Shown here: piece by piece, positions 15,001 through 38,614 of the stretch
How the letters are laid out: the number at the start of each line of letters is the position of its first letter
How positions within the stretch are numbered: the stretch's first letter is position 1
DNA from: Verrucomicrobiota bacterium
GTDB taxonomy: Bacteria; Verrucomicrobiota; Verrucomicrobiia; Opitutales; JABDGR01
DNA: 64,000 bases
NCBI GenBank assembly: GCA_013285985.1
Contig: JABDGR010000001.1
Location: forward strand, 67 to 64,066
Direction: 5' to 3'
Notes under the pieces: generated by a model
Seen by the model: the letters and a program-made list of their open reading frames with translations, nothing else
Told to the model about the DNA's origin: nothing
Databases searched by the model: none
Made by a program: the position numbers and the translations under genes

Positions 15001-18000
15001 CACCGACACCCCACCCCCGCCCGCCAGTGCGCGTGCCGACAGCACCACATCATTGCTGTTCGTGATGAAGGACACACAGCCCGAGCCGATGCCGGTCGTG
15101 GTGTTCATTACTGCACTGACGTCCGTGGTGGTTCCCGGCGCCCAAATCAGGGCCGCATTGTTGACCGTGACGCTGGCGTTCGCCGGGTTGCCGAACACAT
15201 TATTCGAATTGAAATTGATGCCGCCACCACCGCTGATGGTGGTTGTGCCGTTGTAGGTGTTGGTACCCGTCAGGGTCAGGATGCCGGTGCCCACTTTGGT
15301 GAAGCTGCCGGACACCACGTTGGTGTCGGTCAAGGCGCCCGTGTAGGTCGTATTCGCGTTGTTCAGGCCGACCGTGAGGTTCATCGCGGCGTTGGAGGCG
15401 TTGGACAAGTCGATGTTGTTGCTTCCGCTCAAGCCACCCAGGGTCGCATTCGTCAGCGCCAGGAAGCTGACATTGCCATCACCTATGTTGGTCTGCAGAG
15501 TGCTATTGGCCAGCGCGAGGTTACTGCCCAGGAACAACGTACCGCCGCTGTTGACCACAGTGACGCCGTTAAAGGTGTTATTGCCCGACAGCGTCAAGTT
15601 ACCCACGCCGGTCTTGGTCAATCCGCCCGTGCCGGACAGTATGGCCGAGATCGTCTCATCGCTCGTGTTCGTGTCCAGCGTGCTCGTGCCGCCATTGATG
15701 AAATTGGTGGAGAGCGTCCCACCGGCATTGGAGCTGACGTTGGCAATGGGGGCAAACATGTTGCCCGAACCGGCCGCAATGGTCACCATCGAGGCGAGGG
15801 TCGTGTTGCCTTGGAGTAAGGCGAGGAGTTGCTGCCCGGTGGTGGTGACGGTGCCGTTGGTGGTGGCCAGTTGCACATTAATCGTGGTGCCGCTGATGCT
15901 CAGGCCCAGGGATTGGTTGCCCGAACCGGTGCCGTTGGCAAACGTGGCATTGCCGATCAGGTTGAGGAGGAGATTGTTGCCATTCGCAGCGTAGACCGTG
16001 CTGTTGGTTCCGATAGCCGTCAGGTTGATGACGTTATTGAAGTTGCTGGACGAGACGCCGTTCGCGAGGAGGTTGTTAATGATGCTGGCCGTGGCATTGC
16101 CGATGGTCAGGTTCGAATTCAACTGGCTGGAAATGTTTGTCTGCGTGTTGACGGCCCATTGCAGAGTGCCGCCCAGCAAGGTGACATTGCCCGTGCCCAA
16201 GGCTTGCAGGCTGTTGAAGTTAAGTATGCCGCCATTAACGATGACGCCGCCCGAGAATGTGTTGTTGGCCACCAATGACAACGTGCCGGTGTCCACCTTC
16301 ATCAAAGATCCATTGCCGGAGAGCGACGAGGCGAATTGGACGTTGCTGCCATTCGTGTCGAAAACGTCGTTGCCCGAATTCGGCGAAATATTGCCCACCA
16401 AGCCGCCGAACTTGCCATTGATCTGGCCCGAGATGTCCTCGTTCGTTCCCGACGCCCATTGCAGGCCGCCGTTCAGCAGGGTAATATTGCCCGAGCCAAA
16501 ATTCGTCGGCGAATTGAAGTTAATCAGCCCGCCATTGGCCACCGTGCCACCGGAATAGATGCTGGTGCCGGTCAGCGTCAAAATGCCCGTGCCCGACTTG
16601 ATTAGATTACCCGAGCCGAAAAGCTGGCCGCCGTACGTCGAATTCTGCGAGCCCTGAATGACCAGGCTGATGGGGTTGCCGGTGGCGGGATTCGTCAGCG
16701 CAAAGGGCAAAATGCTGGTCAAACCACCGAGGCGCACGACGGGCTGGGTGCCATAATTGATGGTGCCGTTTTGGTAGACCAAGGTCGCGTTCTGCAGCTC
16801 ATTTTCCGTGGCGCTGATGTCGAGGGTGCCGCCGGTGAGGGTAACATTGCCATTAAAAGTGTTGTTGTTAGGATTGTTAAATTTGACTGTGTTGTTGCCC
16901 GCGGCGGTGCCGCCCGCCAGCGCAGTCGCAGTCAGGTTTGCCAGCGCTATGGTCCCATTGCCGGTGTTGGCGGAGGGGCCGGCCTCCAGCGTCACCGTGG
17001 CATTGGCCAGGAGCGCCGTACCGTTGGCCCCCAAGCTTCCATTGCCCAACGCGGTCAAAAATAGTGACGCGGTTGTGGTGGGTGTACCACTGGTAGTGGC
17101 TAGATTGATCGTAAAGGTCGTCACCGCGCCGACGGTAGAGCACGAAATCGAAAGCGGAACGGTGCCCGTATTAATCACATAGGCAATTTTTATGTTGTTG
17201 CCCACCGTGCCCGGCGTCACCGAGGTGAACGTCAGGCCGCTCTGCCCGGTCGTCCCCGACGTGGCGTTGGCAAAGCCCGTGTTCAACGCCGCGGTAGCAC
17301 CGGGGGTGGCACCGTTCAGGGTGATGTTGCCCGAACCGGAAATGACGCCGGAGAAAGTCACCGAGCCGTTTTCACTGACCGTCATGTTCGCGTTGTCCAC
17401 AATGGCATAGTCCACGGTGGAGTTGCTGGTGTTCGCATAACTGCCCGTTGTAAAGTTGCCGTATTGCAACGTGCCGCCGTTAATGAACATGGTGCCCAAG
17501 CTCACGAGGGAGCCGTTGGAATTCGCGCTCTTCAGCGTGAAGTTTCCATCAGCCAGGGTCAGGGTGCCAAGGCCGGCCTTGATGATGTCAACCGTAGTGA
17601 AAGAACCGGCGGTGTTGGTGCTTACAACACCGGCGGTCATGGGATTCGCCGCAAAGGTGATGTTGTTGCCGTTCGTGTCGAAAGTATTAAAGATGGTGGT
17701 GTTGGCCTGAATGTTGCCGGTGGTTCCGACCGAGCCGCCGATGCTGGCGCCGGACATGCGGAGGGAAAGGTCCCCGTTATCCCCCGGAACCGTATTGGAA
17801 AAGCCGGTCGCCGGATTAATATAGTTGGGCGCCCATTGCAAGGTGCCGCCATCCATCTGGATGGCGGGCAGCGTGCCCGCCGAGGTGGGACCGCCAAAAT
17901 TATTCAATTGGTTAAAATCAATCGTGCCGCCGCTGCTGAACAGGGTCGCGCCGGTGGTGGCGTTGGTGTTCGTCGGCGTAATGGTGGTGGTGCCGCTGAA

Positions 18001-19800: not shown

Positions 19801-20542
19801 ATCGCGGTGAGCTTGCGAGGTTGAATTATTCGCCTTCGGATTCCTTGCCGCCACTTGACGTGGCGTAAAAAATTCGGGGCGGGAGTTTTTTATTTTTAAA
19901 GGGAAGGGGTAAGGGGGAAAATCTATTCGCGGCTCGATTTCACACTCGGCTCAACGCGCTTGCACCGGGGAAAATCCGCCGCAGCAGGGGGATTTCCCGA
20001 GGGAAGACAGCAGGCGTGTCACGAATTGGAAACGGGCATTCATCGGCGTAATAATCGTTATTAGCGGACGGGGTAAAGCGGTGGGGTGATGAGGGCTGAA
20101 CGCGGCATTCCCGTAATCCGTTTGGGAACACTCGCGTTGTGGGGTGGAGGTAGTTCTTCCGCAGCTAGGTTCCATTATTGTAAAAAAATTGTAGGCTGCA
20201 ACAGTATTCTTCGTTTTTTTTGACCTTTTTTTCAGAGCGAAAACGGCCCTTGCCAGCCCCTCCCCAAAATTGAGCCTTTTTGCCCACATAATAACGTTAA
20301 ATAAAATAGGTAAATGCCCATTTGCTCACAATTCCGATCACTCTCAACTCGTTGGCAATGAGAGCAACCGCCGGGTTATTCACATTTTTGGCACATATTT
20401 GGTCGATTTTACGCCTACTAGGTTTCGCCTTATTCGCATGGGTATAAATACCCAGACAAAAATGGGTGTTTTACCCCATAAACCATCCCCCGACTGCCCA
20501 ATTGACCGGCCGGAGTCAATTTCGTGATTTTTGTTAAACAAT

Positions 20543-20562
20543 AATATTATTATAATAATATT
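20543..20562. repeat. Perfect 20-bp all-A/T palindrome AATATTATTA|TAATAATATT followed by a T-rich run; function unknown (operator or AU hairpin)
   Basis: Read directly; the sequence is its own reverse complement. It lies 103 nt downstream of the radical SAM stop, in the long leader region of the giant gene. Confidence 0.8.
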
Positions 20563-20664
20563 TTTAATTTTTATTAGGACGAATGCCCCGATCGAAGCAC
20601 AATTTCGAGTTCTCTGAAGCTAACGCATTATAAATTAGGAAAAACACGACCTGATCCCGCCGCT

Positions 20665-21765
20665 TCACCCCCACCCGGCCAGCTCCGACTGGATCGGACC
20701 GGGGCGACGAAATGCATCTGTGTTTAACTCCAAAAGACGCGGCGTCAATCCGGCCTTCCGACAAGCCAGTTCGAACATTCCAGTGAAGGTTTCCGGCCAA
20801 ATTCCTTCGCCGGTCATGCGAGTTCCAAACCGGGCGTCACTTAGGCGGCCAGTCCTGCCGCGCAAATCTTGGAGCCGTTGGACAACCCGCTCTTTTTTGC
20901 CGGGAAACTCGCGGTCAAGCCAGCCGAGGAATAATTCCTTCACGGCGTAGGGCAGCCGCAATACTTGGAAATGGGCGAAGTGTGCCCCGGCGTTGGTGGC
21001 GGCTAAAATCATCTCCGCCATCTCTGCGTCGTTGAGTCCGGGAATGATTGGAGCGAGGTTTACCCCCACCGGCACACCGGCTTCCGCCAGGCGCGAAACC
21101 GTCTCCAATCGTTGCCGGGGCGAGACCGTCCGCGGTTCCATCCGCCGGGCCAAATCCGCATCCAAAGATGTCAGTGATACCAGTACCGCGGCACCGTGCC
21201 AACGCGCCATTTCGGAGAGTATATCCACATCGCGTGTGACCAGCGCATTCTTGGTCACGATGGTCACCGGATTGCGGTAACGCGCCAGCAGTTCCAGGCA
21301 ACGCCGGGTCAGGCTGAACCGGCGCTCGGCTGGCTGGTAGCAATCGGTCACCCCGCTCATGTTGACCCACGCCGGCTCCCAGCGCGGGTGTTCCAAGGCG
21401 GCCTCGAGCAGTGCCGGCGCGCGTTCCTTGACCATGATCTTGGTCTCAAAATCCAGCCCGGAGCTGAAGCCGAGGTATTCGTGGGTTGGCCGGGCGTAAC
21501 AGTAGATACAACCATGTTCGCAACCGCGATAGGGGTTGATGCTCTTACGGAAGGGGATGTCGGGGCTGTTGTTCTCGCTTATAATAGACTGCGAGATATC
21601 GGGGATGAAAACGGTGTCCGTGCGGCGCGGCTCCATGAGCTCCTCGGCAGGCAGTTGGTCCCAATCCGAGGTCGAACTAACAGACTCAAAACGATTGCGC
21701 GGATTATCCTGAGCGCCTCGGCCACGTTTTTGGGCAACAGGAGGAATAATGGGCTTATCCGGCAT
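20665..21765 (-). CDS. Radical SAM protein, PA0069-like family
   Basis: CEHGCIYC (CxxxCxxC) cluster motif preceded by KRGRGAQDNPRNRFE, an N-terminal box I associate with the PA0069-type family. The track ORF (to 21804) starts on TTG; in-frame ATGs at 21774 and 21765 are more plausible starts. Confidence 0.8.
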   Translation of the reverse strand: MPDKPIIPPVAQKRGRGAQDNPRNRFESVSSTSDWDQLPAEELMEPRRTDTVFIPDISQSIISENNSPDIPFRKSINPYRGCEHGCIYCYARPTHEYLGFSSGLDFETKIMVKERAPALLEAALEHPRWEPAWVNMSGVTDCYQPAERRFSLTRRCLELLARYRNPVTIVTKNALVTRDVDILSEMARWHGAAVLVSLTSLDADLARRMEPRTVSPRQRLETVSRLAEAGVPVGVNLAPIIPGLNDAEMAEMILAATNAGAHFAHFQVLRLPYAVKELFLGWLDREFPGKKERVVQRLQDLRGRTGRLSDARFGTRMTGEGIWPETFTGMFELACRKAGLTPRLLELNTDAFRRPGPIQSELAGWG

Positions 21766-21836
21766 AGTGAACATAATAGCACATATTCGTCGCGGTGCAA
21801 ACAAATAGTATCACGGCAAAAAACGCCCTCCTCCTT

Positions 21837-24800
21837 TTACGGAACCGTTTGCGCTTCGACGCGGAGGAAGATGGCGCCGGTGGCGGGCAGGGCGACGCTG
21901 GCCTGGTATTGGGCAGTGTAGGGGTCGGCGTCGGAGACTTGCTGGATGCTTCCTGCGTCCACATCCGTCCAAGTCGCCAAGTCCGTGGAATACCGCGGCA
22001 CCAACTGGCAGTCGGTCATGTTTTTGCGGACGCGGTACTGGATGACAAGGGAGTTGACGCCGCTGATGTTCGCGGTGGAGAGGCTGGGCCGGCCCACGGG
22101 AGTGGCGGTCAGGTCGAGATTCATGGCGTAGCGGAGCAAATTCGCGGGGCCGCCAAAAGGTTTGGCGGTCGCCAGTGCGTCGGCACCGGAGAGACCGGAG
22201 TCCGCCGCCCAGGTGGCAAAGACCGTCGGTGCGTCCAAGCTGAGATTGCCAGTGGCATCGAGTTGGGAAACGTTCCAGTCCAGGCCGTCGCCCGAGGAGG
22301 TGAGCACAAAATTGGAAAAAGAACCGGACAACGTGTTGGCGACCGAGAGCAGGGAAAATGCGTCGCTCAAAGCTGGCGCGTAGCCGTTGATCAAGCCAAG
22401 GAGAAATGTGCCACCGAGGGTGAGATTGCCGCCGACATTGACGGAGCCGTATTGCGTGCCGAGGGTGGTGCCGCCGAGATGGAAAAGGGTGAGTGCGGTG
22501 GTGCCGAGAACCAGATTGTTGCCAAAGCTCAACAGCCCGGCGCTGCCGGACGTGCCGGCCTGCAATTTCCCGCCAATCGATGTATTTCCACCAACATTTC
22601 CGGTTCCGGCGAGAGTGCCGTTGACGCCGACGGTCACTGCACCCGTGCCGGTGGCCGAAACGGTGCCGTTGTTGGAAACGAGCAGAGCCCCGCCATTCAC
22701 CATGGTATTGCCGGTGTAGGTGTTGTTGCCGGAAAGCGTGAGCGCGCCCGGTTTGATTTTGGTCAAGTTGCCGCTGCCGCTGAGAACTCCGGACCAGGTG
22801 GCGTTCAAGCCGTTGGTGTCGATGGTTGAGGTGGTGGTGTTAACGAGAGTGGCGTTAATCGAAGTGGTCAAATTAGTGTTGGCAACTTGGAGCGTCCCGC
22901 CGCCGAAATTAAACGCATAATTGCCGGAGCCCGCTTGAATACCACTGGACCCACCGACGGACAGGGTGCCGCCGTTGAGATTGACAGTGCCGTTCGAACC
23001 GGTGTTTTGAGCGAGGGTAATATTGGAACCGGACGAGAGACTCACCAACCCGCCATTGGCCACCATCAAAGTCCCATGACCGGCTTCACCCACAGTAATA
23101 CCATCGGCAATGGCCAAAATGGAGTTGGGGTCAGTGACCAGCACTGTGCCAACGGTAGGCCCGGCAAATGATCCGATGGCAATGTCGAGGATTCCGCTGC
23201 CGGAAACTAAACCGCCATTAGCTACAGTCAGGTTGCCGGTACCCGTATTACTATTGGCACCCACAAGGATGCCACCAGCCACATGCAATGTCGAATTGGC
23301 GTCGGTTACCAATACGGTGCCATTGGCCGAGTTAAAGGTCGAACCCCCCAGTGCGTCCGTGGTCAGTATGAGCGAGCTGTTAATATTTACATTTCCGCCA
23401 TTGGCCACGGTGAGGTTGCCCGTGCCGCGGATACCGATGATGACATCATTCGCGACGCTTAACGTGGAGCCGAAACCAGTTACGAGCATGGCACCGGTAT
23501 CGTTATTCATAACACCGCCAATCGTGAGATTGGCACCACTGGTGACACTGCCGCCGTTAGCCACAGTCAAACTGCCCGCACCACCACCGCCAAAGTTATT
23601 GCTGCCGGCAGCTATATCACCCGTCGTATGCAAAGTTGAGTTGGCATCTGTAACCAGTACGGTGCCGGTTATACCAGAACCCACCACGACTGAACCGGCG
23701 GAGACATTGCCGCCATTGGCCACGGTGAGATTACCGGAGCCGGAGCCGACAAACCCGACCTTAATTTGACCGTTCACCATTAATTTTGAGCCGGGATCGG
23801 TGACCAGGGTTATGGCAGTGCCAGTTTGCCCAAGCTCGAAACCGAAGCCAGCCGCAGCGACATAGCCACCGTTGGCGATGGTGAGGGTGCCGTTGCCACC
23901 CTGGCCCACACTCATGCCGGCGGCGGCAATCAAGGATGAGTTGGCGCCCGAGACCAAGACCGAACCGGAGTTGACGGACACGACCACCTGGTTCGAGACC
24001 GGGTCAATGAATGCTTCGTTGCCTTGAAAACCGGCCAGCAGGGCTCCGGCCGCGATAATTTTGCCGCCATTGAGCACCGAGAGGTTGCCGATGCCGAAGT
24101 TGCCGACGTACAAAGTGTCGGACAAATTCAGCGTGGTGTTGGGGCCGGTCACCAGCGCCGTGCCGTTCGAGAAATCGGTATCACCGAGAGAGAGGTTTTG
24201 AGCCGCGATATTGGCGCCATTGGCAACCAGCAACGAAGCCGTCACGTTGCCCAAGTTGCCCACGGTAAAGTTGCTGCTGCTTTGGCCGACAGTGCTGCCG
24301 TTAACAATCAATTGACCACCGGTGACGACCGTGCCGCCGGTGTAGCTATTATTGCCGCTGGCGAGGGTGAGGTTGCCGAGGCCCGCCTTGACCAGTGCGC
24401 CGCTACCGGCCAAGTTCGTGGCAAAAGTGACATCGTTACCGTTGGTGTCAAAAGTCTCGTTGCCCGCGCCGAGCGGGTTGGCGAACGCAGAAATGTCGAG
24501 GGCGTTGCCCGGCGCCCATTGCAGGCCGCCGCCGCTGAGCGTGAAACCGCCCGGGCCAAAATTATTGAGCGAATTGAAATTGACCAAGCCGCCGGCCAGC
24601 ACCGTGCCGCCGGTGTAAGTGTTGTTAACGGTGAGGGTCAATGTGCCATCGCCGGCTTTGACGAGCGTGCCGCTGCCGGCAACAACCGAGGCAAAAGCGA
24701 TGTTGTTGCCATTGGTGTCAAAAGTGTCGTTGCCCGCGCCGAGCGGGTTCAAGCGGCTGGAAATGTCGAGGGTGTTGTTCGCCGCCCATTGCAAGCCGCC

Positions 24801-27401
24801 ACCGGCAAGGGTGAGATTGGCGGGACCAAAATTGTTGCCGGAATTGAAGTTTATCAGGCCACCATCAACCGCGGTGCCGTTGGAGTAGGTGTTGTTGCCG
24901 GTGAGCGTAACCACGCCACTGCCCGTCTTGATCAACGAGACGTTGCCTGCGAGCGCAACCGTCACGGTGCCATTCATGAGTTGGAAATTGTTGATGCTCG
25001 TCAGCGTGGAATTGCCCGTGCCGGTGATGCTGCCGCCATTGGCCAGGATCACCGATGTGAACGTGCCACTGTGATTGGCGCCGAAATCAAACGTGGCTGT
25101 CGAGTTGGCCAAGTCTACTCCCACGGACGTGTTACTCGGATTGCCGGGGGACGAACTGGAAGCAATGGCGGCAATCGCAAAATTGGCTCCACTGGCGCCA
25201 CTCGTGACCCCACTGAGGTAGCTGGAATTAATCGTTGGCTGAGAACCGTCGACGATCAGGGTGCTGGCGGGCGAAATGGAGCCGTTGGCCCCCTCCGCCA
25301 ACGTGCCGCCGGTGACGATAGTGTAGCCTGTGTAGGTTTCGTTTGCGTTCAGGGTCAGCGTGCCGTTGCTGATTTTCCCGAGTGAGCCAACGCCGCTGAT
25401 GACCCCCGTGAGCGTCGCGTTGGCACCGTTGGTGTCAATGATATCGGGCTGGGCGTTCGAGTTGTTGAGAGTCAGATTGGCACTCGTGGTCAAGTCGTCG
25501 CCGACGGTGGTGAAACCGAAACCGTTGAATATTTCACTGCTCGGAATACGGATTATGCCACCGTCGAGGCTGATACTCCCTGTGCCACTGCCGACGGCGA
25601 GGCCGTTTTGGCCGCCGACAATCAAGACCCCATTCGTGTTGATGGCCAGGGAGCCATGACTGCCCGCCTGATTCGCCAGGAGCACGCCGGGTTGGGCATT
25701 GACCACGGCGCCATTGGCGACGGTCAACGAGCCATTGCCATTATTGCCGACCAGCAGCACCCCACCGGTCACGTCCATCTCGGAGTGAAGCGCGAGGGTA
25801 CTGCCACCACCAAGAGTCACCACGGTGGCATCCTGAACAGTGACGCTGGCGGTGGAATTCGCACCATAGCCAATATACATGCCAACACCGTGGGAATCAC
25901 TGGAATTTGCTGTGACAGAGCAGATATTGGCGACCAGCAAGGTGCCATTGCCATCATAACCCACTGCCAGAGCACCGCCGCCCACGCGCAACACGGATGT
26001 TTCATTGTTGGCTGCGAAATTGCTGACGGTAACGCTGCCGGTGGAATTCGCGCCATAACCGATATACGCGCCAATACCATTCGGGTCATTGCCGTAAACA
26101 CTCACGTTGCCGCCATTAGCGACCAGAAGGCTGCCGTGGCCATTATAGCCCACGGCGAGAGCGCCGCTAAAAACGCTCAGGGCGGATCCATCCAGGGAAA
26201 TGGGGCCAAGATCGGTAACTGTGACGTTGCCCGTGGAATTGGCCCCGTAGCCGACATAGGCGCTAATGCCGTTGGCGTCACTGCTATTGATTCGGACGGT
26301 GCCGGCATTGGCGATGGTGAGATTGCCGGCGCCGTTATAGCCCACGGCCAGCGCGCCGCTATTCAGCGTCAAACCCGACCGCTGAGTGGCGCCAACCAAG
26401 TTGGGAAGAGTCAGCTCATCCCGAATCAAGACCGTGCCGGTGGAATTGGCAGCATAACCGAGATAAGCACCGATGCCGTTGGCGTCATTGCCGTTGAGGT
26501 TGGCGGCAGAGCCATTGGCCACGGTCAACGCGCCGGTGCCATTATAGCCCACGGCCAGCGCACCACTATTCACATTGAATTGAGACGAGAACCATGGAGA
26601 ACCGGGGTAGACAAAAGTGCCGCCGGTAACAGTGACCGTGCCGGTGGAATTGGCGCTGTGGCCGACATATGCGCCGATGCCCTGGGCATCGACCCCCGAG
26701 GCGTTGACCCCGCCGCCGTTGGCAATCGTGAGATTGCCGGTACCGTCATAGCCCAGCGCCAGAGCACCCGTGTTCACATTCAGGGTGGAGCGGGTGCCAA
26801 TAAAACTGCTATGCAGTGCATCGGCAACCATGACGGTGCCGGTGGAATTCGCGTCAGCGCCGATATACGCACCGATGCCATTCGCATCATTGCCGGTAAA
26901 ATTGGCTGAGGCGGCCTGGGCCACGGTCAAATTCCCTATGCCGGAAAGGCCCGCGGAAAAATTCCCGGCGACGCTCCAAAGCGTATTCAGATCGCTGACC
27001 AACACGGCGCCCGTCGCACCTGAACCTGAGCCAATGGTGGCGTTGCCGGAGGTGGCGAGGGTATGAGCGTCATGAATCGTGAGCAAGGTGCTGGCCGTGC
27101 TATTGGCATCCAGGCCGACCGTGAGAAAATCCGCAGTGGCGTTGGCCGTCGAGATTACTGGCTGGTTGCCACTGCCCGCGTCGATGTTGACGTTACCGCT
27201 GGAAGTCGGCACGGAGTTGGTGCTCCAATTCGAGCCGGTGTTCCAATCGGTGCTGGTGTTGCCGGTCCAGATAATTTGCGCGTGGGCGGGATTGGAGAAG
27301 AAAAGAACCAGGCAGAAAAGCGCGAACGAGGGACGCGATGAATGAATTAATAGCCTAAAAAGTCTGCATAGTGACAGAACAAAAGAGGCCGTGGATTTCA
27401 T
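21837..27401 (-). CDS. Large secreted repeat protein (~1,854 aa): N-terminal T5SS/PEP-CTERM-associated-like repeats plus C-terminal PATR repeats
   Basis: The track ORF runs to 27725. I prefer the ATG at 27401 (MKSTASFVLSLCRLF...LFFSNPAHAQIIW, signal-like) because the upstream 108 codons translate intergenic repeat DNA. At least six ~65-aa units carry GIGAY(I/V)GxxANSTGTVTV...GALAVGYNGTGNLTIANGG, followed by further (T/S)(V/I)ANGGxV units and then PATR units (GSGTLVKAGDGTLTLTVNNTYTGGTVLAGGLVNF). The C-terminus shows no obvious beta-barrel or PEP-CTERM. Confidence 0.85.
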   Translation of the reverse strand: MKSTASFVLSLCRLFRLLIHSSRPSFALFCLVLFFSNPAHAQIIWTGNTSTDWNTGSNWSTNSVPTSSGNVNIDAGSGNQPVISTANATADFLTVGLDANSTASTLLTIHDAHTLATSGNATIGSGSGATGAVLVSDLNTLWSVAGNFSAGLSGIGNLTVAQAASANFTGNDANGIGAYIGADANSTGTVMVADALHSSFIGTRSTLNVNTGALALGYDGTGNLTIANGGGVNASGVDAQGIGAYVGHSANSTGTVTVTGGTFVYPGSPWFSSQFNVNSGALAVGYNGTGALTVANGSAANLNGNDANGIGAYLGYAANSTGTVLIRDELTLPNLVGATQRSGLTLNSGALAVGYNGAGNLTIANAGTVRINSSDANGISAYVGYGANSTGNVTVTDLGPISLDGSALSVFSGALAVGYNGHGSLLVANGGNVSVYGNDPNGIGAYIGYGANSTGSVTVSNFAANNETSVLRVGGGALAVGYDGNGTLLVANICSVTANSSDSHGVGMYIGYGANSTASVTVQDATVVTLGGGSTLALHSEMDVTGGVLLVGNNGNGSLTVANGAVVNAQPGVLLANQAGSHGSLAINTNGVLIVGGQNGLAVGSGTGSISLDGGIIRIPSSEIFNGFGFTTVGDDLTTSANLTLNNSNAQPDIIDTNGANATLTGVISGVGSLGKISNGTLTLNANETYTGYTIVTGGTLAEGANGSISPASTLIVDGSQPTINSSYLSGVTSGASGANFAIAAIASSSSPGNPSNTSVGVDLANSTATFDFGANHSGTFTSVILANGGSITGTGNSTLTSINNFQLMNGTVTVALAGNVSLIKTGSGVVTLTGNNTYSNGTAVDGGLINFNSGNNFGPANLTLAGGGLQWAANNTLDISSRLNPLGAGNDTFDTNGNNIAFASVVAGSGTLVKAGDGTLTLTVNNTYTGGTVLAGGLVNFNSLNNFGPGGFTLSGGGLQWAPGNALDISAFANPLGAGNETFDTNGNDVTFATNLAGSGALVKAGLGNLTLASGNNSYTGGTVVTGGQLIVNGSTVGQSSSNFTVGNLGNVTASLLVANGANIAAQNLSLGDTDFSNGTALVTGPNTTLNLSDTLYVGNFGIGNLSVLNGGKIIAAGALLAGFQGNEAFIDPVSNQVVVSVNSGSVLVSGANSSLIAAAGMSVGQGGNGTLTIANGGYVAAAGFGFELGQTGTAITLVTDPGSKLMVNGQIKVGFVGSGSGNLTVANGGNVSAGSVVVGSGITGTVLVTDANSTLHTTGDIAAGSNNFGGGGAGSLTVANGGSVTSGANLTIGGVMNNDTGAMLVTGFGSTLSVANDVIIGIRGTGNLTVANGGNVNINSSLILTTDALGGSTFNSANGTVLVTDANSTLHVAGGILVGANSNTGTGNLTVANGGLVSGSGILDIAIGSFAGPTVGTVLVTDPNSILAIADGITVGEAGHGTLMVANGGLVSLSSGSNITLAQNTGSNGTVNLNGGTLSVGGSSGIQAGSGNYAFNFGGGTLQVANTNLTTSINATLVNTTTSTIDTNGLNATWSGVLSGSGNLTKIKPGALTLSGNNTYTGNTMVNGGALLVSNNGTVSATGTGAVTVGVNGTLAGTGNVGGNTSIGGKLQAGTSGSAGLLSFGNNLVLGTTALTLFHLGGTTLGTQYGSVNVGGNLTLGGTFLLGLINGYAPALSDAFSLLSVANTLSGSFSNFVLTSSGDGLDWNVSQLDATGNLSLDAPTVFATWAADSGLSGADALATAKPFGGPANLLRYAMNLDLTATPVGRPSLSTANISGVNSLVIQYRVRKNMTDCQLVPRYSTDLATWTDVDAGSIQQVSDADPYTAQYQASVALPATGAIFLRVEAQTVP

Positions 27402-27576
27402 GGACAAAAAATTCGCGAAACGCAGAGCAAGCCAAGGGAAATGGTTCCTTTGGCCGTGAGTAAGTAATTGTCCCAAATTCAGGCAGAGATTTGCCGGGGT
27501 GTCAAAACGATAGCAGGCGTAGGTTATAATGTTTCGTTTTCGTAACCAACGAGGGATGAAGCACCTGCGAAACAGG

Positions 27577-27618
27577 AAAAACAAAACGGCCGGCGCGCCA
27601 TCGAGTGACGCGCCGGCC
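27577..27618 (-). terminator. Rho-independent terminator candidate downstream of eno
   Basis: Perfect 10-bp GC stem GGCCGGCGCG (27588-27597) / CGCGCCGGCC (27609-27618) with an 11-nt loop. On the minus strand it is followed by GTTTTGTTTTTCC. Confidence 0.6.
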
Positions 27619-27813
27619 AAAGGGGGAAGTTCCCGCCCTACCCTCAAACAACGCCCCACCGATCGCGGGACGAGTCCCAAGACCTCGCCCTGAATCGGGC
27701 GCAGCAAGACTGCGCCTCTACGCAAAATTCCAACCGACTTTAAAACATGAGCTAGGCCCGCCGGGGACGTCGGGCCCTACCAAGAACGGCATAGCGCAAG
27801 CGCTGGCCCTACC

Positions 27814-30187: not shown

Positions 30188-32266
30188 TTACCGATGGCCG
30201 TTGAAGAGTTCGGCGGCTAATGCCGGGGCGTCGTAGATTTTGCGGAGGGCTTCGAGAATGCCGGCGCTGTGGACACTGACGGAGCGGGTCTGCACGTCGG
30301 AATAACCATAATCGCCGGAGAGGGACTGGATGTTGCCGTCGAAGATGATGCCGACGAATTCGCCCGCTTCGTTGACGACGGGACTGCCGGAGTTGCCGCC
30401 GATGATGTCGGCGGTGTTCACGAAATTGAGCGGAGTCGTCAAATCGACCGCGGATTTTTTCGCGAGCCAGCGCGCCGGCAGGCCGAAGGGTTCGCGGTTG
30501 TGGTGGGCGTCGTCGCGGGCGAAAAGGCCGGCAAAGGTCGTGAGCGCGGGGATGGTCTGGCCGTTTTCCTCATAACTTTTCACCGGACCGTAGGCGAGGC
30601 GCAGAGTGAAGGTGGCGTCGGGATAATTATTCGTGCCCTCGAGGGCGAAGCGGGCTTTCTCGATGACGGCGTGGGCCTCCTGGATGATTTCCTGCTGCGC
30701 CTCGACGGTCTTGCGCAGGGCGCGGGACTCGGGGTCGATGACGCGGGCGAGCTCAATCATCGGGTCGTGCGCGGCGGCCACGGCGTCCGCGCCGCCTTCG
30801 TAGAGTTTTTTGCGGAAGGCGAGGTCGCGCACCTGCGTGGTGTTAATCAATTCGGCGGCGCGGTCGCGCGGGGATTTACCGGCGAGAACGGATTGAACGA
30901 GGGGGTCGTCTGCGCCGAATTGCTCGACCAGATAGCCTAACGAGTCCGCGAGCTTGAGAATTTCGAAATCGGAATAAATCGGCGCGTTGGAAAAAAGGAG
31001 TTGCTCGAAGGACTCGCGCTTGGCGTCAGAAAATTCCGGCAGGCGCTCGCCGTTGGGCTTGGGGCGCTCGGCCCCGGCGCGGAGGAGGCGGCGAGCGAGC
31101 GAGAAGGACGCGGAGTTGAAGCCGGCACCATCCTCAAGCAGACGAAAGCGCGGCTCCAGGCCGGTGATAATTTTTTGCGCGGCGACGATGCGGTCAAAGG
31201 CGGCGAGGGCGTCCTTGCCATTGGGGGTGGCGGCGAGCTGCTGCTTGAAGGCCTGCTCGGCGGCGACTTTCGCGCCGAAGAACACGGGGTCCTGCAACGC
31301 GGCGAGCTGGCCGTCGCTGCGCTTGCGGTTGTTCTGCACGTTCAGCAGATCGCTATCCGCGCGACGGGCGTTTTCATCGGCGCGGCCGCTCCAGACGGAG
31401 TACAACACCTCGCGGCGTTTGATGACCTGCAGGTAATAAGGAAGCTGGCTGTCGCGCATGTATTCGATTTCGGGAATCGTCAGCAGGCGGCGCGTGGTGC
31501 CGGGGTGGCCGGAGACAAACGTCAGCTCACCGTCCTGCGCGCCGGTGGCGGACCATTTTAAAAAGTGCGCGGGGTGCACGGGCTGGCCGTTTTCGTAAAC
31601 GCGGAAGATGCAGATATCGAGGTCGAAGCGCGGGAACTCGAAGTTGTCGGGGTCGCCGCCGAAATCCGCCGCCTGCTCCTCGGGCGCGAAGACAATGCGG
31701 ATGTCGGTATAACGTTTGTAGCGGTAGAGGTGGTACACGCCGCCCTGGTAGAGCGTGACGACATCGCTGCGCAGGCCGGTCTGGTCGAGCGATTCTTTTT
31801 CGATGTCGGCGAAAATTTTGCGGCGGGCGAGCGCGGCGTCCGTGCCCGTGGCGTCGGCGGGGACGGCGGCGTTGACGCGCGCAGTGACATCCTCGATGGA
31901 CTGGAGCACGTTCAGCTCGAGGTCGAGGCACTTCATTTCCTCGGCGGGGGTTTTGGCGTAAAAGCCGTCGCGCACGTAATTGTGCTCGGCGTTGCTCATT
32001 TTCAGCAGGTCGCCGCGGCCGATGTGGAAGTTGGTGATGACGAGGCCGTCGCCACTGACGAACGAGCCGGAGCCACCGCTGATGAAGCGCACGCTGGACT
32101 TCATCAGGTTGTCGAGCCAGGCGTCGGTGAGGTCGAAGCCGTATTTCGCCTTAATCTGGGCGCGCGGCGGCGCGGTATAAAGCCACATGCCCTCGTCAGC
32201 GGATGCGGAAACCGCGAGCGCGAGGAGGAGGGCGAAGCCGAGGAAAGTGGAGCGAAGCCGAATCAT
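30188..32266 (-). CDS. Peptidase family S46 (DPP7/DPP11-like dipeptidyl-peptidase), secreted
   Basis: The ATG at 32266 gives MIRLRSTFLGFALLLALAVSASADEGMWLY: a signal peptide followed by the DEGMW box typical of mature S46 enzymes. IIGGNSGSPVVN serine motif near the C-terminus. The track start at 32353 lies in a repeat. Confidence 0.85.
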   Translation of the reverse strand: MIRLRSTFLGFALLLALAVSASADEGMWLYTAPPRAQIKAKYGFDLTDAWLDNLMKSSVRFISGGSGSFVSGDGLVITNFHIGRGDLLKMSNAEHNYVRDGFYAKTPAEEMKCLDLELNVLQSIEDVTARVNAAVPADATGTDAALARRKIFADIEKESLDQTGLRSDVVTLYQGGVYHLYRYKRYTDIRIVFAPEEQAADFGGDPDNFEFPRFDLDICIFRVYENGQPVHPAHFLKWSATGAQDGELTFVSGHPGTTRRLLTIPEIEYMRDSQLPYYLQVIKRREVLYSVWSGRADENARRADSDLLNVQNNRKRSDGQLAALQDPVFFGAKVAAEQAFKQQLAATPNGKDALAAFDRIVAAQKIITGLEPRFRLLEDGAGFNSASFSLARRLLRAGAERPKPNGERLPEFSDAKRESFEQLLFSNAPIYSDFEILKLADSLGYLVEQFGADDPLVQSVLAGKSPRDRAAELINTTQVRDLAFRKKLYEGGADAVAAAHDPMIELARVIDPESRALRKTVEAQQEIIQEAHAVIEKARFALEGTNNYPDATFTLRLAYGPVKSYEENGQTIPALTTFAGLFARDDAHHNREPFGLPARWLAKKSAVDLTTPLNFVNTADIIGGNSGSPVVNEAGEFVGIIFDGNIQSLSGDYGYSDVQTRSVSVHSAGILEALRKIYDAPALAAELFNGHR

Positions 32267-32324
32267 AGGAAAGCGGCTAGTTGAGCCATGCGTGAAGGCG
32301 GGAGTCAATACTGAGAGAGAAGGC

Positions 32325-32346
32325 AAAAGCGGCGTCAAGCCGCCGC
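32325..32346 (-). terminator. Short intrinsic-terminator-like hairpin after stand-alone NGxWY gene B
   Basis: Minus strand reads GCGGCG-GCTTGA-CGCCGC-TTTT, followed by CTCTCTCAGTATTGACTCC (a possible -35 for the peptidase gene). Confidence 0.5.
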
Positions 32347-32365
32347 AGGCCAAAAAATTGCTGGA

Positions 32366-33016
32366 CTAATTCCCTGCGTCATCCGGTTTCATATACCACT
32401 TGCCGTTGATTTTGACGAAGACCAAGGAGTTATGAATATCGGAAGTGGTGAACGCGCCGTTTTCCAAGTCGGACATTGATGGGGTAGTGTAAATATAAGT
32501 GGCTTCGTCACCAGCAGCGTTAAAAATAGGCGCCTGATTCAAGAGGGCTTCGAAAGCCTGCGCCCTCGCTTCATATCTATGCTGCGTGGCTTCTTTTCCT
32601 TGCCGGCCCATGGCATCCACGCGAGCTTGAATCTGATCCTGCTGCGCTTGCAGTGCTTGCACCCGGTCTTCATGGATTTTGTCGGGCGGGGTGTAGGCTC
32701 GCAATATCGCCACCAAGTTATTGGTCCGGTATAAATTCGCCATATCGGTGAGGGCGGCATTCAACTCAATTCTGGACCCGGCGTTGGGGTCTTTGGGCGG
32801 TGTGGCGGCGACAGGCGCAGCGGCTGAATTCGGCGCCGGCGGCGCAACTTGCTTGGGTGCTTCAATTTTACTCAGCGAAGGCACAGTAGTTTTGCTCGGC
32901 GCAGGCGCAGAGGCAGTTTTTTCCGGGACAGTTGCGGCGGGGCGCAGAAACCACCAAATGCCCATACCGGCGAGGACAACGATGAGAACAGCCAAGGTGA
33001 AGTTTTTAGGCCTCAT
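32366..33016 (-). CDS. Stand-alone membrane-anchored NGxWY-domain protein (paralog B)
   Basis: The ATG at 33016 gives MRPKNFTLAVLIVVLAGMGIWWFLRP, then an AP-rich linker, YTPPDKI, APIFNAAGDEATYIY and FVKINGKWYMK. The track start at 33052 adds 12 codons. Confidence 0.85.
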   Translation of the reverse strand: MRPKNFTLAVLIVVLAGMGIWWFLRPAATVPEKTASAPAPSKTTVPSLSKIEAPKQVAPPAPNSAAAPVAATPPKDPNAGSRIELNAALTDMANLYRTNNLVAILRAYTPPDKIHEDRVQALQAQQDQIQARVDAMGRQGKEATQHRYEARAQAFEALLNQAPIFNAAGDEATYIYTTPSMSDLENGAFTTSDIHNSLVFVKINGKWYMKPDDAGN

Positions 33017-33103
33017 GGCGTTTTTCTTCGCATTTTGTATCCAAGAAGGCAAACACTTCTGTTAGCCGGCAGCAAATCAGCTTGAATTTTGGCTTTGTTC
33101 TTT

Positions 33104-33317
33104 TTCGCCCTGAAGGCGCGGAGGAATCCAGCCCACGGGTTGGGCGAAGCGAAACCCTGGGAATTAGTAACGGATGTATTTTGCGCCCTGTAGGGGCGCA
33201 GGAGCATGGCTCCATTCTCCTCCGCCCTTACAGGGCGGGAGATATAATATGTTCCCATTACCCAGGGTATCGCTTCGCTCAACCCTGGGCTTTGCTCCAG
33301 CAGCCTTTCAGGCTGCC
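33104..33317. repeat. ~215-bp composite of GC-rich hairpins, copy 1 (homologous to 46851-47068)
   Basis: Shares its order of hairpins with copy 2: CCCAGGGTT..AACCCTGGG (twice), GCGCCCTGTAGGGGCGC, CCGCCCTTACAGGGCGG, GCAGCCTTTCAGGCTGC. Confidence 0.8.
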
Positions 33318-33418
33318 GGGTAAAGTTTGAAAACAACCTATTACAAGGGAGGATTTATACCAAAAACGGACGACACGGAGGTCGTCCCTCCGGGGATTTC
33401 ACCAACTCCAAACGCGAT

Positions 33419-33440
33419 AAAAGCGGCGTCAAGCCGCCAC
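33419..33440 (-). terminator. Intrinsic-terminator-like hairpin downstream of rnr
   Basis: Minus strand reads GTGGCG-GCTTGA-CGCCGC-TTTTAT (one G-U pair). Same family as 29193-29214 and 32325-32346. Confidence 0.5.
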
Positions 33441-33479
33441 AGGCCAAAGACCAAATCGCTAGGCCCGCCGGGCCCTACC

Positions 33480-35921: not shown

Positions 35922-36359
35922 TTAAGGAAATTTGGGCGGGGTGCGGCCCTCGTCCACTTCGATAAAATCGAACATGGTGAGGATTTCGCCGATGCGGTGC
36001 TCGAGTTTGGCTTCTTTGAGGCGCATATGAAGGCGGGGCGTGGCGGTGTCGCGCCAGCCGCGCCGGAGGAGAAATTCGTTGAGTTCGGTGATTTCGTCAG
36101 TGGACGGCATACGACCATGCTCGAAGCACCACTGGAGGGCGGCTTCATCGGAGGCGCCGGCGAGGACCTGCTTTTTGAGGTCGTCGTATTTGACGCCGAG
36201 GAAACTGCAGCAACGGGCGTCAAAACCGCCGCCGAGGTTTTCGAGGTAATCCTTGCCGAGGGCGCTGGCGGCGTGCAGGCGGATTTTGTCCAGCATGCGG
36301 GGGAAATAGACGAGGCCGCCGGTCTTGTCATAACAACTGCGGGGGAACTTGGTGCTCAT
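35922..36359 (-). CDS. DUF5069-family protein
   Basis: The ATG at 36359 gives MSTKFPRSCYDKTGGLVYFPRMLDKIRLHA...FLGVKYDDLKKQV...ALQWC, the pattern I associate with DUF5069. Its stop abuts the rnr start codon. The track start at 36458 is over-extended. Confidence 0.7.
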   Translation of the reverse strand: MSTKFPRSCYDKTGGLVYFPRMLDKIRLHAASALGKDYLENLGGGFDARCCSFLGVKYDDLKKQVLAGASDEAALQWCFEHGRMPSTDEITELNEFLLRRGWRDTATPRLHMRLKEAKLEHRIGEILTMFDFIEVDEGRTPPKFP

Positions 36360-36523
36360 GGAAATAGGGAGATGGAGGAACCACGTTAACAGATTTCCGG
36401 CGCAGGGGAAGCACAACCGGCATGCCAATATTGACGCATTTTGAAATGACCTAAACAAGCGCCTAAAGAGCGGATTGGCCAGAGCCTAAAACTCTCCAGA
36501 AAACGACGAGCAGAGAATAAGAA

Positions 36524-37711
36524 CTAATTTGCCAAGAAACCTACCGTTTTTGCTTTTGGCATGGTTTTTATTTTAGCTGATAACTCTGTTTGGGTGAAGA
36601 GTGAAGGCCATTCGAGATTGATTGAAATTATATATGTCTCGCCGTCTTTTCGGTGTCGTATTGCCTGTAGATGTATGAGTTGATTCAAGTCCCTAATCAA
36701 AATCTTGTAAGGATTTTTTATTGTGTATGCCCATTTTGTTTTTTCGGTAATGGCCTCTAAGGTTAATTCTCCTTCCTGCAAGAGAAGTTTCAATACCTCA
36801 AATTGGCGCCCTGTTACTACACGTTTTCTGGGAGAGGTTAAGCGCCCAACTAACTCCGTCATGGTTTGCCTAAATAACGCCTTCGAAATATGCTCTTTTA
36901 TTTCTGAAAATAGGCGTTTGCATTGCTGTTCTATACCTTTTAGGCCAAGTAAAATGAATGGCGTCAAATCGTACTCTTGAGCACGTACGTCTGCCAACGC
37001 CTTTAGGTAAGCATTTTTTTCGTCATAATAATAATTGGACATTGCGATAAAGAGCGGTGTTTCGCGCAACCCAACTCTTTGAAGCATCAAGGCTTCTAAT
37101 GCTCGAGCTGTGCGACCATTGCCATCGAGAAAGGGATGCATGGCCGCAAAATGGTAATGTAACGCGAGTGCCTGTATAAGTGGGTCGTGGTCCTGGAACT
37201 CAGTCCGCACCGCCTCGCAAAGAGACTGGAAGGATTGGCAGACCATGTCGCCACCTGGTGCGCCACGATGCCTTGGATGTCCAAAAATGACATTGTCATC
37301 CGGGCCACGCAGTTTTCCGGGTGGGCAGTGATCATCATCTGCACCCGTGACGATGAGTCTGTGAATTTCGCAAATAAGCTCTTCATTGACTGGCCTATCG
37401 GCCGGCTGTTGGGCAATCCACCGATACGCATTTGCGGCAGCAGCGGCTTGTTTTTGAGAACGCGTTTCTAATTGTTCCACAGATTCGTGCATGGCTGCAT
37501 CTAACTCTTTGTCTGTAAATTCAGCTCCTTCAATTTTTGAAGTGCCAGCCACCTCGCGTTTAAGTTGAATACGCCGCATTTCATCAGCCCATTCACGCTG
37601 ATAGGGCATACTCGTCAGCGAAATAACCATTGCCTTTGCCGTGGACAATGGGCCTAGAACTTGGCCTTTATCGTATTTCAGCCAGCTTTGGGGGCGAGTG
37701 TAACGGATCAT
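36524..37711 (-). CDS. Fic family protein (class II, N-terminal inhibitory motif; C-terminal wHTH-like region)
   Basis: Fic active-site motif HPFLDGNGRTAR and an upstream TSKIEG that matches the (S/T)xxxE(G/N) auto-inhibition motif. The track start at 37723 is TTG; the first ATG is at 37711. Lies in the low-GC islet. Confidence 0.88.
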   Translation of the reverse strand: MIRYTRPQSWLKYDKGQVLGPLSTAKAMVISLTSMPYQREWADEMRRIQLKREVAGTSKIEGAEFTDKELDAAMHESVEQLETRSQKQAAAAANAYRWIAQQPADRPVNEELICEIHRLIVTGADDDHCPPGKLRGPDDNVIFGHPRHRGAPGGDMVCQSFQSLCEAVRTEFQDHDPLIQALALHYHFAAMHPFLDGNGRTARALEALMLQRVGLRETPLFIAMSNYYYDEKNAYLKALADVRAQEYDLTPFILLGLKGIEQQCKRLFSEIKEHISKALFRQTMTELVGRLTSPRKRVVTGRQFEVLKLLLQEGELTLEAITEKTKWAYTIKNPYKILIRDLNQLIHLQAIRHRKDGETYIISINLEWPSLFTQTELSAKIKTMPKAKTVGFLAN

Positions 37712-37761
37712 TACCAAATTCAATTCATTTCCAGAATTATAGCAAGCATTAAATTCATAAA

Positions 37762-38400
37762 ATGTTGGATGATAATGAAATAAAAGTTTTAAGTAAATTT
37801 TTACTCGACTTTAAAATCAATTTCGTTTCCAGTCCATTTCCTCGATTTATGAGCACTATTTATCTCAATTCGTTTTTCCCGATTAATCAGATTACGGCGA
37901 ACAAGTTGATGGCTGTTTGCGCCCAGCTTATCGCCAGCGAAAAGCCCGAACGACTTTATTTCCTCTTCGCTTCACCCGGCGGCGAAGTTCCTGCAGGCAT
38001 AGTAATTTATCATTATCTAAGGGCACTCCCCGTCAAGGTGACGATGCACAACATCGGCTCGATAGATTCAATCGCCAATGTAATTTTTCATGCCGCTGAT
38101 GAACGCAAGGCCGTACCGCAATCCACATTTTTATTTCACGGTGTCAGCTTGGGACTGGAAAAGGTAAGTTTAAACCGAAATCAACTTCAAGAGCTTAGCA
38201 GCCAATTAAGCGCCGATGAAATGAAAATCGCCACGATTCTAGCTGCCCGTTGCAACCTCACGCATGGGGATATCGAGTCCATGTTTGTCCAAGGCGTAAC
38301 CAAAGACGCCGTCTTTGCGAAGGACAAAGGCATCATTCAGGAGATTTCTCAGCCTGTCATCCCCCCAGACGCAAAGTTCATTAGCCTGAACTTTACCTAA
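37762..38400 (+). CDS. ClpP-like (clan SK, Clp/crotonase fold) serine protease family protein
   Basis: Aligns by eye to ClpP. LFASPGGEVPAGIVIY matches INSPGGxxTAGxxIY, NIGSIDSIANVIF matches GQAASMGAFLL (catalytic Ser position), and STFLFHGV matches SRVMIHQP (His position). An alternative start is M31 at 37852. Confidence 0.7.
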   Translation: MLDDNEIKVLSKFLLDFKINFVSSPFPRFMSTIYLNSFFPINQITANKLMAVCAQLIASEKPERLYFLFASPGGEVPAGIVIYHYLRALPVKVTMHNIGSIDSIANVIFHAADERKAVPQSTFLFHGVSLGLEKVSLNRNQLQELSSQLSADEMKIATILAARCNLTHGDIESMFVQGVTKDAVFAKDKGIIQEISQPVIPPDAKFISLNFT

Positions 38401-38614
38401 GGCGGAGGGGTCTCCGGCCCAAAAAATGACCGGAAAGGCCACGTTTTTGAAATAAGGCGTTTCCATAGCGGTTAAAAATACCCTCCGATGAGGTGTTATA
38501 CAAGGGCTTTTATCACTTAGATTTGCTCCGTGCAATGGCTCCGTTGGCTGCGTTGGATAGATTTGATGCGTTTGATAGGTTGGGTTCTGCTTAGCAGAGT
38601 AGTCTCCCTTCTTG

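Follow-up and report, generated by a model that had tools for sequence, protein, structure and literature searches.

The stretch of DNA analysed here (the window) comprises 64,000 nucleotides of contig JABDGR010000001.1 from a Verrucomicrobiota bacterium. Between a gene for a major facilitator superfamily (MFS) transporter and the DUF5069-rnr operon it carries a small islet of low guanine plus cytosine (GC) content, in which two genes are placed head to head. One of them encodes a class II Fic protein with the architecture of SoFic, and the other encodes a short, N-terminally truncated protein of the ClpP fold, which is of the PpClpP1 type. The original prediction, made from the letters of this DNA, had proposed that the two genes act as a functional pair. 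Analysis clearly showed that the islet is a foreign insertion, and the two genes were neighbours at no other locus surveyed. We favour the explanation, with a probability of roughly three in four, that the spacer between the MFS and DUF5069 genes recently acquired a 2.2-kb insert, which holds two functionally independent and separately mobile accessory genes.

A foreign insertion beside the DUF5069-rnr operon

The base composition of the islet differs strongly from that of the remaining window. The interval first proposed for it, 36460-38614, has a GC content of 0.452 against 0.598 elsewhere, and it is the minimum among all 2,155-bp windows of the 64 kb (mean 0.593, standard deviation 0.028), about 5 standard deviations lower. 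When GC is followed in a sliding window, a trough of 0.38-0.55 lies at about 36450-38550, with values of 0.58-0.70 on either side. The GC content at third codon positions (GC3) is 0.43 in the Fic open reading frame (ORF) and 0.50 in the ClpP-like ORF, and it ranges from 0.55 to 0.83 in every other long ORF. The two islet genes are close to each other in total GC (0.459 and 0.471).

Relatives of the locus were found via orthologues of the neighbouring MFS transporter, and their contigs were then compared with the window. In five independent relatives, the MFS gene, a spacer of 72-80 bp, the DUF5069 gene and the RNase R gene follow each other with nothing between. The loci with such an empty site have MFS proteins of 79% (L115 and L116), 80% (L117 and L118) and 82% (L120 and L121) identity. 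The closest relative, L119, has the same empty site. Its MFS protein clusters with that of the window at 90%, and over stretches of 2-3 kb its flanking DNA is 85-92% identical to the window at the nucleotide level. Homology to L119 extends across the MFS stop codon (window 38615), is then lost and restarts at window 36420, which gives the exact junctions 36420/36421 and 38614/38615. Because the homology breaks exactly at those points, 36421-38614 is the insert. L119 has just 17 bp, TCGGGCGAGCGACCGCT, where the window carries the 2,194-bp insert, and these 17 bp have been replaced. In L114, a different gene follows the MFS gene and the region is rearranged.

The segment is a foreign insertion. 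The low-GC foreign stretch that had been claimed between the DUF5069-rnr operon and the MFS gene is borne out by GC, GC3 and the empty sites; as for its limits, the right edge was placed correctly, but the left edge lay 39 bp too far in when judged by the L119 junction. Of the marks of a genomic island, the segment has an unusual composition and is missing at this site in relatives, while an integrase or transposase, a tRNA target and flanking direct repeats are lacking. No integrase was found among the called genes of the contig and no tRNA gene across the 64-kb window, and the search for flanking direct or inverted repeats and for a target-site duplication at the islet edges returned short chance matches only, in agreement with the absence of an integrase, a tRNA and obvious direct repeats stated originally. 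Neither a transposase nor an inverted repeat of the IS1595 type was detected in the islet or the window (searched with the terminal repeat of L019 and L023, described below, 3 mismatches allowed). Likewise, remnants of hsdR, hsdM or hsdS were absent from the window, and no Rfam family matched in it. The features of the locus are collected in Table 1.

Table 1. Coordinates of the islet, its parts and the native flanks (window positions).
Feature	Position	Strand	Basis
Native flank: DUF5069 gene, first in the DUF5069-rnr operon	35922-36359	-	Pfam on gene calls; conserved leader reaches 36420
Inserted foreign segment, 2,194 bp, about 45% GC	36421-38614		Junction alignment with L119; empty sites in L115-L118, L120, L121
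Non-coding insert tail downstream of Fic, 103 bp	36421-36523		No ORF of at least 20 aa on the Fic strand
Class II Fic, SoFic architecture, 395 aa, C-terminal winged-helix domain	36524-37711	-	Pfam Fic, PADLOC SoFic
Divergent intergenic spacer, 137 bp, 25.5% GC	37712-37848		Gene starts 37711 and 37849
Short N-terminally truncated ClpP-fold protein, PpClpP1 type, 183 aa	37849-38400	+	Pfam CLP_protease, 9UXT profile and fold match
Non-coding insert tail, 214 bp, 48% GC	38401-38614		ORFs of at most 98 aa only, without homologues; no Rfam, no IS1595-type inverted repeat
Native flank: MFS_3/MFS_1 transporter gene, 421 aa	38615-39880	-	Orthologues of 79-82% identity, one of at least 90%, directly beside DUF5069 in relatives

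The divergent spacer presumably holds the promoters of both islet genes. It contains one sigma-70-like match in the Fic direction (37797-37769), which is not above shuffled expectation, and promoter and terminator scans of the whole islet gave counts no higher than shuffled expectation. Beside the insert, a conserved leader of the DUF5069 gene, CCGGTTGTGCTTCCCCTGCGCCGGAAATCTG, survives at window 36390-36420 (minus strand), and its core GCTTCCCC..GC.GGAAAT.TG is common to L115, L117 and L119. This leader is probably the promoter or a regulatory site of the DUF5069-rnr operon, left intact by the insertion.

The Fic protein and the short ClpP-like protein

The Fic protein was claimed to be intact and to possess its own inhibitory helix, and Pfam, PADLOC, the family alignment and the fold all confirm this. 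It matches the Pfam family Fic (PF02661) with an E-value of 5.2e-16 and 59.7 bits against a cut-off of 24. Its start at ATG 37711 is backed by homologues beginning with MI(I/V)RYE and by the public gene call P0121 of 395 amino acids (aa). The active-site motif HPFLDGNGRTAR (H192-P-F-L-D-G-N-G-R-T-A-R203) fits the consensus HxFx(D/E)GNGRxxR, and its residues are invariant from H192 to R203 in a 20-sequence alignment of the family. About 130 residues N-terminal of it, in the same chain, lies the inhibitory motif TSKIEG (residues 57-62, with T57, E61 and G62), which fits the class II consensus (S/T)xxxE(G/N). This motif is positioned at the end of a predicted helix (residues 39-59) and in the following loop, and it is invariant in the same alignment save for K or R at residue 59. 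Class II Fic enzymes are reportedly autoinhibited in cis and need no partner.

PADLOC, a search proposed at the outset as a check, matched the Fic protein to the SoFic model PDLC03963 (1.2e-46, 157.8 bits; residues 7-361 of the protein on positions 15-350 of 361 in a model that is broad) and gave no match to the ClpP-like protein. The nearest solved sequences to the window Fic are the SoFic entries 3EQX and 3ZCN. An AlphaFold2 (AF2) model, which is of moderate quality with a predicted local distance difference test (pLDDT) score of 77, aligns over its full length with 3ZCN/3EQX, with 7CB8 (M. marinum Fic) and with 8CIL (C. burnetii Fic2). It includes a C-terminal winged-helix unit, and its Foldseek matches to SoFic, FICD and others have a probability of 1.00. 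The NCBIfam equivalog for SoFic, NF046030, gives 65.9 bits against a cut-off of 550, and because this score is far under the cut-off the window Fic is not a SoFic orthologue.

SoFic of Shewanella oneidensis (SO_4266; 3EQX/3ZCN), one of the anti-phage systems of Millman et al. 2022, is a single Fic gene that reportedly acts in defence on its own (10.1101/2022.05.11.491447). The window Fic has the same class II layout with the inhibitory helix N-terminal in the same chain, the canonical active-site motif, the C-terminal winged helix and a stand-alone gene, and it resembles SoFic over its full length in both the PADLOC match and the Foldseek alignment. Unlike SoFic, it is 395 aa long instead of 372, shares only about 20% identity and fails the equivalog, and it belongs to a separate uniform family of about 397 aa that is often found inside type I restriction-modification (R-M) operons; an anti-phage role of the window Fic would be by analogy. 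In E. coli, a 47-aa downstream partner of a SoFic-type enzyme, AS1, has been described, and this EcAS1 lowers the toxicity of the enzyme, possibly via protein stability (PMC12249575). No AS1-like small ORF (at least 20 aa, on the Fic strand) is present in the 103 bp downstream of the window Fic.

The family of the window Fic is strikingly uniform. The search returned 3,809 matches, most of the best-scoring ones being about 397 aa long, and the 20-sequence alignment has a mean column identity of 73%. Among the members with a name are proteins of Deltaproteobacteria, Vicinamibacteria, Opitutaceae and Syntrophus. The window Fic is the most divergent member sampled, with 62% identity to relatives that share 76% among themselves. 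The homologues generally match the GC of their hosts (mean difference between gene and flank -0.007), and the window copy is a compositional outlier, the only sampled copy so far below its host. Its divergence and low GC together would fit transfer from a donor of low GC, or selection that has relaxed or changed.

The ClpP-like gene most likely encodes 183 aa from ATG 37849 and not the 212 aa of the original prediction, which an in-frame upstream ATG at 37762 would yield. The public gene call P0001 (gene 4611-5162 of L001, the window's own contig) has 183 aa and is 100% identical. In an alignment of 30 sequences, most homologues are about 183-186 aa long and begin at the Met equal to window 37849, and the N-terminal extensions of the longer homologues are not conserved. 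With the start at 37849, the spacer between the two genes is 137 bp, so that the head-to-head arrangement with an A/T-rich shared spacer stands but the 50 bp first given for it (37712-37761) do not.

The protein matches Pfam CLP_protease (4.2e-15, 56.5 bits against a cut-off of 20.2), and this broad threshold is the only one passed, since the NCBIfam clpP model TIGR00493 reaches 24.9 bits against 308.6 and PRK00277 reaches 40.1 against 249. Searched against the PDB, the family profile finds 9UXT far better than any other entry (4.6e-28, residues 5-181 of 183). Foldseek also gives 9uxt_A as the best PDB match, with a template modelling (TM) score of 0.90 and a root-mean-square deviation of 1.6 A, and canonical ClpPs follow at a TM score of about 0.8. 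The AF2 model has a pLDDT of 95.7 and begins directly with a strand at residues 3-9. The protein lacks the axial loop, which makes up about 22 residues at the N-terminus of canonical ClpP, and profile position 10 pairs with residue 33 of the staphylococcal ClpP 8QYF.

Ser74 and His97 are invariant in the family alignment A1. At the column of the catalytic Asp the family has an invariant Gly149, which pairs in the profile alignment with the Pro151 of 'YPR' in 9UXT and with the Asp of 'DRDN' in 8QYF; the latter we take to be the catalytic Asp172 in S. aureus numbering. The window reads G149-V150 and most relatives read G-E. A ClpP fold that keeps Ser and His, as was claimed, is present, but the full catalytic triad is not, the Asp position being Gly149. 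Lack of the triad had been named beforehand as an argument against the proposed pair, and it applies by half. In comparison with canonical ClpP of S. aureus and E. coli, the window protein has the ClpP/crotonase fold with the nucleophile Ser and the general-base His in the same places, whereas it lacks the N-terminal segment, replaces the triad Asp by Gly and fails TIGR00493. The window contains no canonical clpP.

The protein solved in 9UXT, PpClpP1, is a ClpP paralogue of Pseudomonas plecoglossicida that has 183 aa, a truncated N-terminus and Ser73-His96-Pro151 at the triad positions, and this first structure in the short-ClpP family dates from 2026 (PMC12900304). On its own, PpClpP1 assembles into a wide-pored homotetradecamer that is weakly active as a peptidase, and ClpX does not bind to it; together with the canonical ClpP2 it forms a more active hetero-tetradecamer (PMC12900304). 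Both proteins have 183 aa, lack the axial-loop segment and carry a residue other than Asp at the third triad position, and Ser73 and His96 of PpClpP1 equal Ser74 and His97 of the window protein. In contrast, their identity is 28%, Gly149 stands against Pro151 at the Asp position, and PpClpP1 is a resident paralogue, whereas the window gene is foreign, of low GC and from a family that is often borne by insertion sequences (IS). The 14-mer, the activity and the partnership with canonical ClpP are described for PpClpP1, and they may apply by analogy to the window protein, which is known from its sequence and a monomer model. The ClpP-like family is small but widespread: a word-indexed search gave 183 matches, and a full scan of 1.84 billion representatives gave 42 clusters at E<=1e-30 and 666 at E<=1e-10, most of the best 150 clusters being about 180-200 aa long.

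Neighbourhoods and mobility of the two gene families

A survey of 112 other loci, which cover about 0.9 Mb, asked whether the two genes co-occur elsewhere. The 32 ClpP-like loci (434 kb) are 24 genome and 6 IMG/VR loci at 31-62% identity together with the two closest homologues (66% and 60%). The 80 Fic loci (461 kb) are from metagenomes, at 58-63% identity, and 57 of them have at least 700 bp on the side that corresponds to the ClpP-like gene. Both tblastn (E<=1e-3) and profile hidden Markov models (HMMs) from A1 and A2 (E<=1, all ORFs of at least 50 aa) found Fic at 0 of the 32 ClpP-like loci and the ClpP-like gene at 0 of the 80 Fic loci, and by tblastn both genes are together only on L001. 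Pfam scans of 104 neighbours of the ClpP-like gene and 123 neighbours of Fic agree with this, as the partner is absent among the 25 families shown. The recurrent adjacency expected of a conserved two-gene system is not observed, and the Fic/ClpP-like pair is not a recurring unit. As no other locus surveyed has the two genes side by side, it is most likely that they are passengers without relation to each other and do not form a new two-gene system.

Each family has a typical neighbourhood of its own. For Fic, a collinear type I R-M operon of the order hsdM-hsdS-fic-hsdR was found in 18 of the 80 loci, or in 17 of the 59 with at least 1.5 kb of flank; L030, L042, L045, L050, L052, L053, L058 and L060 are among them. 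The fic gene is always on the same strand as the hsd genes, and in most cases hsdR starts from a few to about 100 bases after it. The hsd identities were confirmed with Pfam, and the Fic gene L045:4716-5774 and a DUF3800 protein of L053 were not counted as HsdS. The literature search on Fic within type I R-M systems found nothing directly relevant, and the association rests on the present survey. The window Fic is of the same family as this defence-island cargo, but no hsd gene lies in the window and it adjoins the ClpP-like gene instead.

Two variations of the R-M arrangement were observed. In L045, two Fic genes in tandem (4716-5774 and 6001-7185) lie inside one type I R-M operon, and the upstream one (352 aa, Pfam Fic 7.8e-15) is distant from the family of about 397 aa. 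In L051 (7198-7311), L061 (1948-2088), L101 (4798-4920) and L102 (2828-2950), a short HsdR-like stretch directly follows fic and no full hsdR was detected; here fic may have moved with an hsdR stub, or hsdR may have decayed.

The short ClpP gene, by comparison, is found among mobile elements. A transposase adjoins it in 8 loci, of the IS1595 family in 5 and IS1-like in 3, and its other neighbours include integrases, a resolvase and an AbiEii-type ATPase. The two closest homologues (66% and 60% identity) stand beside an IS1595 transposase, or beside GroEL and Y1 transposases, and not beside Fic. In two Acidobacteriaceae metagenome-assembled genomes, IS1595-family elements (L019:8089-10782 and L023:8227-10752) are bounded by terminal inverted repeats, 26 nt long and 96% complementary in L019 and 25 nt long and 88% complementary in L023, which enclose the transposase, an ORF with a P63C domain (298-310 aa) and the short ClpP gene. 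Because the repeats enclose it, the short ClpP gene is IS cargo in these two loci, which suggests that the family spreads in this way. Moreover, the gene lies more than 5 GC points under its flanks in 23 of the 32 loci (L002-L027 and L108-L113), with a mean difference of -8 points, and it looks habitually foreign. For the neighbours of the short ClpP, the families shown (25 of Pfam and 25 of PHROG) include no AAA+ unfoldase, portal or capsid, and clpX and clpA are likewise absent among the 25 Pfam families.

Other features of the window were also recorded. At 1-19854 (minus strand) lies a giant ORF that continues beyond the window start and has 6,618 aa or more, and a second long ORF of 1,962 aa occupies 21840-27725 (minus strand), with a radical-SAM gene at 20668-21804 between them. 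Both long ORFs contain units of the passenger-associated transport repeat (PATR) and therefore probably encode surface proteins, or proteins like autotransporters, of very great size. GC also falls to 0.48-0.49 (1-kb windows) in a smaller patch at about 19750-21000, which covers the 5' end of the giant PATR gene and the region upstream of it, and further GC dips are found near 32250-33450 and 46000.

Origin of the islet and relation between its genes

In the favoured explanation, the Fic protein would be an AMP-transferase that its inhibitory helix (Glu61) keeps inactive until some trigger releases it, and it would most plausibly serve as a stand-alone abortive-infection or defence toxin. A defence role would fit both the match to the SoFic model and the habit of the family to reside in R-M operons. 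By analogy with PpClpP1, the short ClpP would form a barrel-shaped tetradecamer with a Ser-His active site, which alone would be a weak peptidase; having no N-terminal axial loops for the docking of ClpX or ClpA, it may mix with the canonical ClpP of the host. The head-to-head placement would then be a one-off result of the assembly of foreign DNA and not a conserved operon-like unit. As no recombinase, target-site duplication, IS end or inverted repeat is left, it is simplest to assume that the DNA entered by illegitimate recombination or that a larger element has eroded.

Several points weigh against this explanation. Both genes are alone in one insert and have similar GC, so they may have arrived together, and a link specific to this lineage is possible. 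They also share the very AT-rich 137-bp divergent spacer, and a change of function could lie behind the long branch of the window Fic (62% vs 76%). The survey is limited in size, with many short contigs among the Fic loci (57 of 80 with at least 700 bp upstream), and its relatives were sampled at no less than 31% identity for the ClpP-like protein and 58% for Fic. Finally, the insertion is not explained by any mobility machinery.

The islet might instead be the remnant of a larger element or defence island, for example an IS1595-type transposon with the ClpP-like gene beside a type I R-M/Fic cassette, in which case the two genes would be linked by history and not by function. The status of the ClpP-like gene as IS1595 cargo in L019 and L023 and its position beside transposases in 8 loci, the frequent travel of the Fic family with R-M genes, the HsdR-like stretches after fic in L051, L061, L101 and L102, and the non-coding tails of 103 bp and 214 bp in the insert all speak for such an origin. 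However, neither in the islet nor elsewhere in the window was a transposase, an hsd fragment or an IS1595-type inverted repeat detected. A target-site duplication is also missing, and the insert fits cleanly into the spacer, of which it replaces only 17 bp. We consider this origin unlikely, and it is a more detailed version of the favoured explanation, with which it is compatible.

A functional two-gene module is much harder to reconcile with the survey. The original prediction had called it plausible that the ClpP-like protease removes or modifies the inhibitory segment of Fic, or that the two form a toxin/counter-toxin or phage-defence pair; regulation by degradation of Fic would be a further form of such a module. 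Their head-to-head order around one AT-rich spacer, the single 2.2-kb insert, the similar GC and the divergence of the window Fic within its family would suit such a module, and EcAS1 is an example of a small partner by which the toxicity of a SoFic-type enzyme is lowered (PMC12249575). Nevertheless, the neighbourhood survey had been named beforehand as decisive against the pair if the families never co-occur, and none of the 32 and 80 loci carries both genes. The typical neighbourhoods of the families differ, PADLOC has no model that matches the ClpP-like protein, and the cis-autoinhibition said to be usual for class II Fic needs no partner. Furthermore, the nearest solved relative of the ClpP-like protein is a weak chambered peptidase that acts on unfolded peptides and not in site-specific processing (PMC12900304). 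The module is largely refuted by the neighbourhood survey, and we regard it as very unlikely.

It is highly improbable that in this lineage alone the short ClpP and the divergent Fic became a working pair. In such a pair the ClpP-like barrel, by itself or in a mixture with host ClpP, might for example control the level of Fic or its inhibitory N-terminus; if this were true, a Fic defence module gated by a protease would be new to the literature. In a weaker form of this idea, the short ClpP might be an IS-borne accessory that re-tunes Clp proteolysis in the host and is co-selected with defence genes.

The weakest alternative, that the ClpP-like gene is a leftover head-maturation protease and the islet a prophage scar, is barely tenable, because its support from weak partial matches to NCBIfam NF045542 (2.5e-11, 43.8 bits against a cut-off of 120), PHROG 94 and PHROG 1684 and from six relatives on IMG/VR contigs is opposed by scores far under the curated cut-offs, by a best structural and sequence match to the cellular PpClpP1 and not to a prohead protease, by the absence of portal and capsid among the top 25 families of 104 neighbours (two tail-protein PHROGs match one neighbour each) and by the absence of any other phage gene from the islet. 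The head-protease identity was rejected on these scores and this neighbourhood, and the weak matches reflect the shared fold only.

With the insertion of two independent accessory genes retained as the preferred explanation, the islet presents no new kind of system, and its Fic adds a divergent member to an architecture already known. It is a clean, well-delimited case of a very small horizontally acquired segment, with exact junctions and with empty sites in relatives. The Fic family of about 397 aa, present in many phyla and often wedged between hsdS and hsdR, is possibly useful to specialists. For the short ClpP family, the occurrence of the truncated ClpP1 type as mobile low-GC cargo prompts one to ask which role a partial ClpP, standing alone, has for the element or the host.

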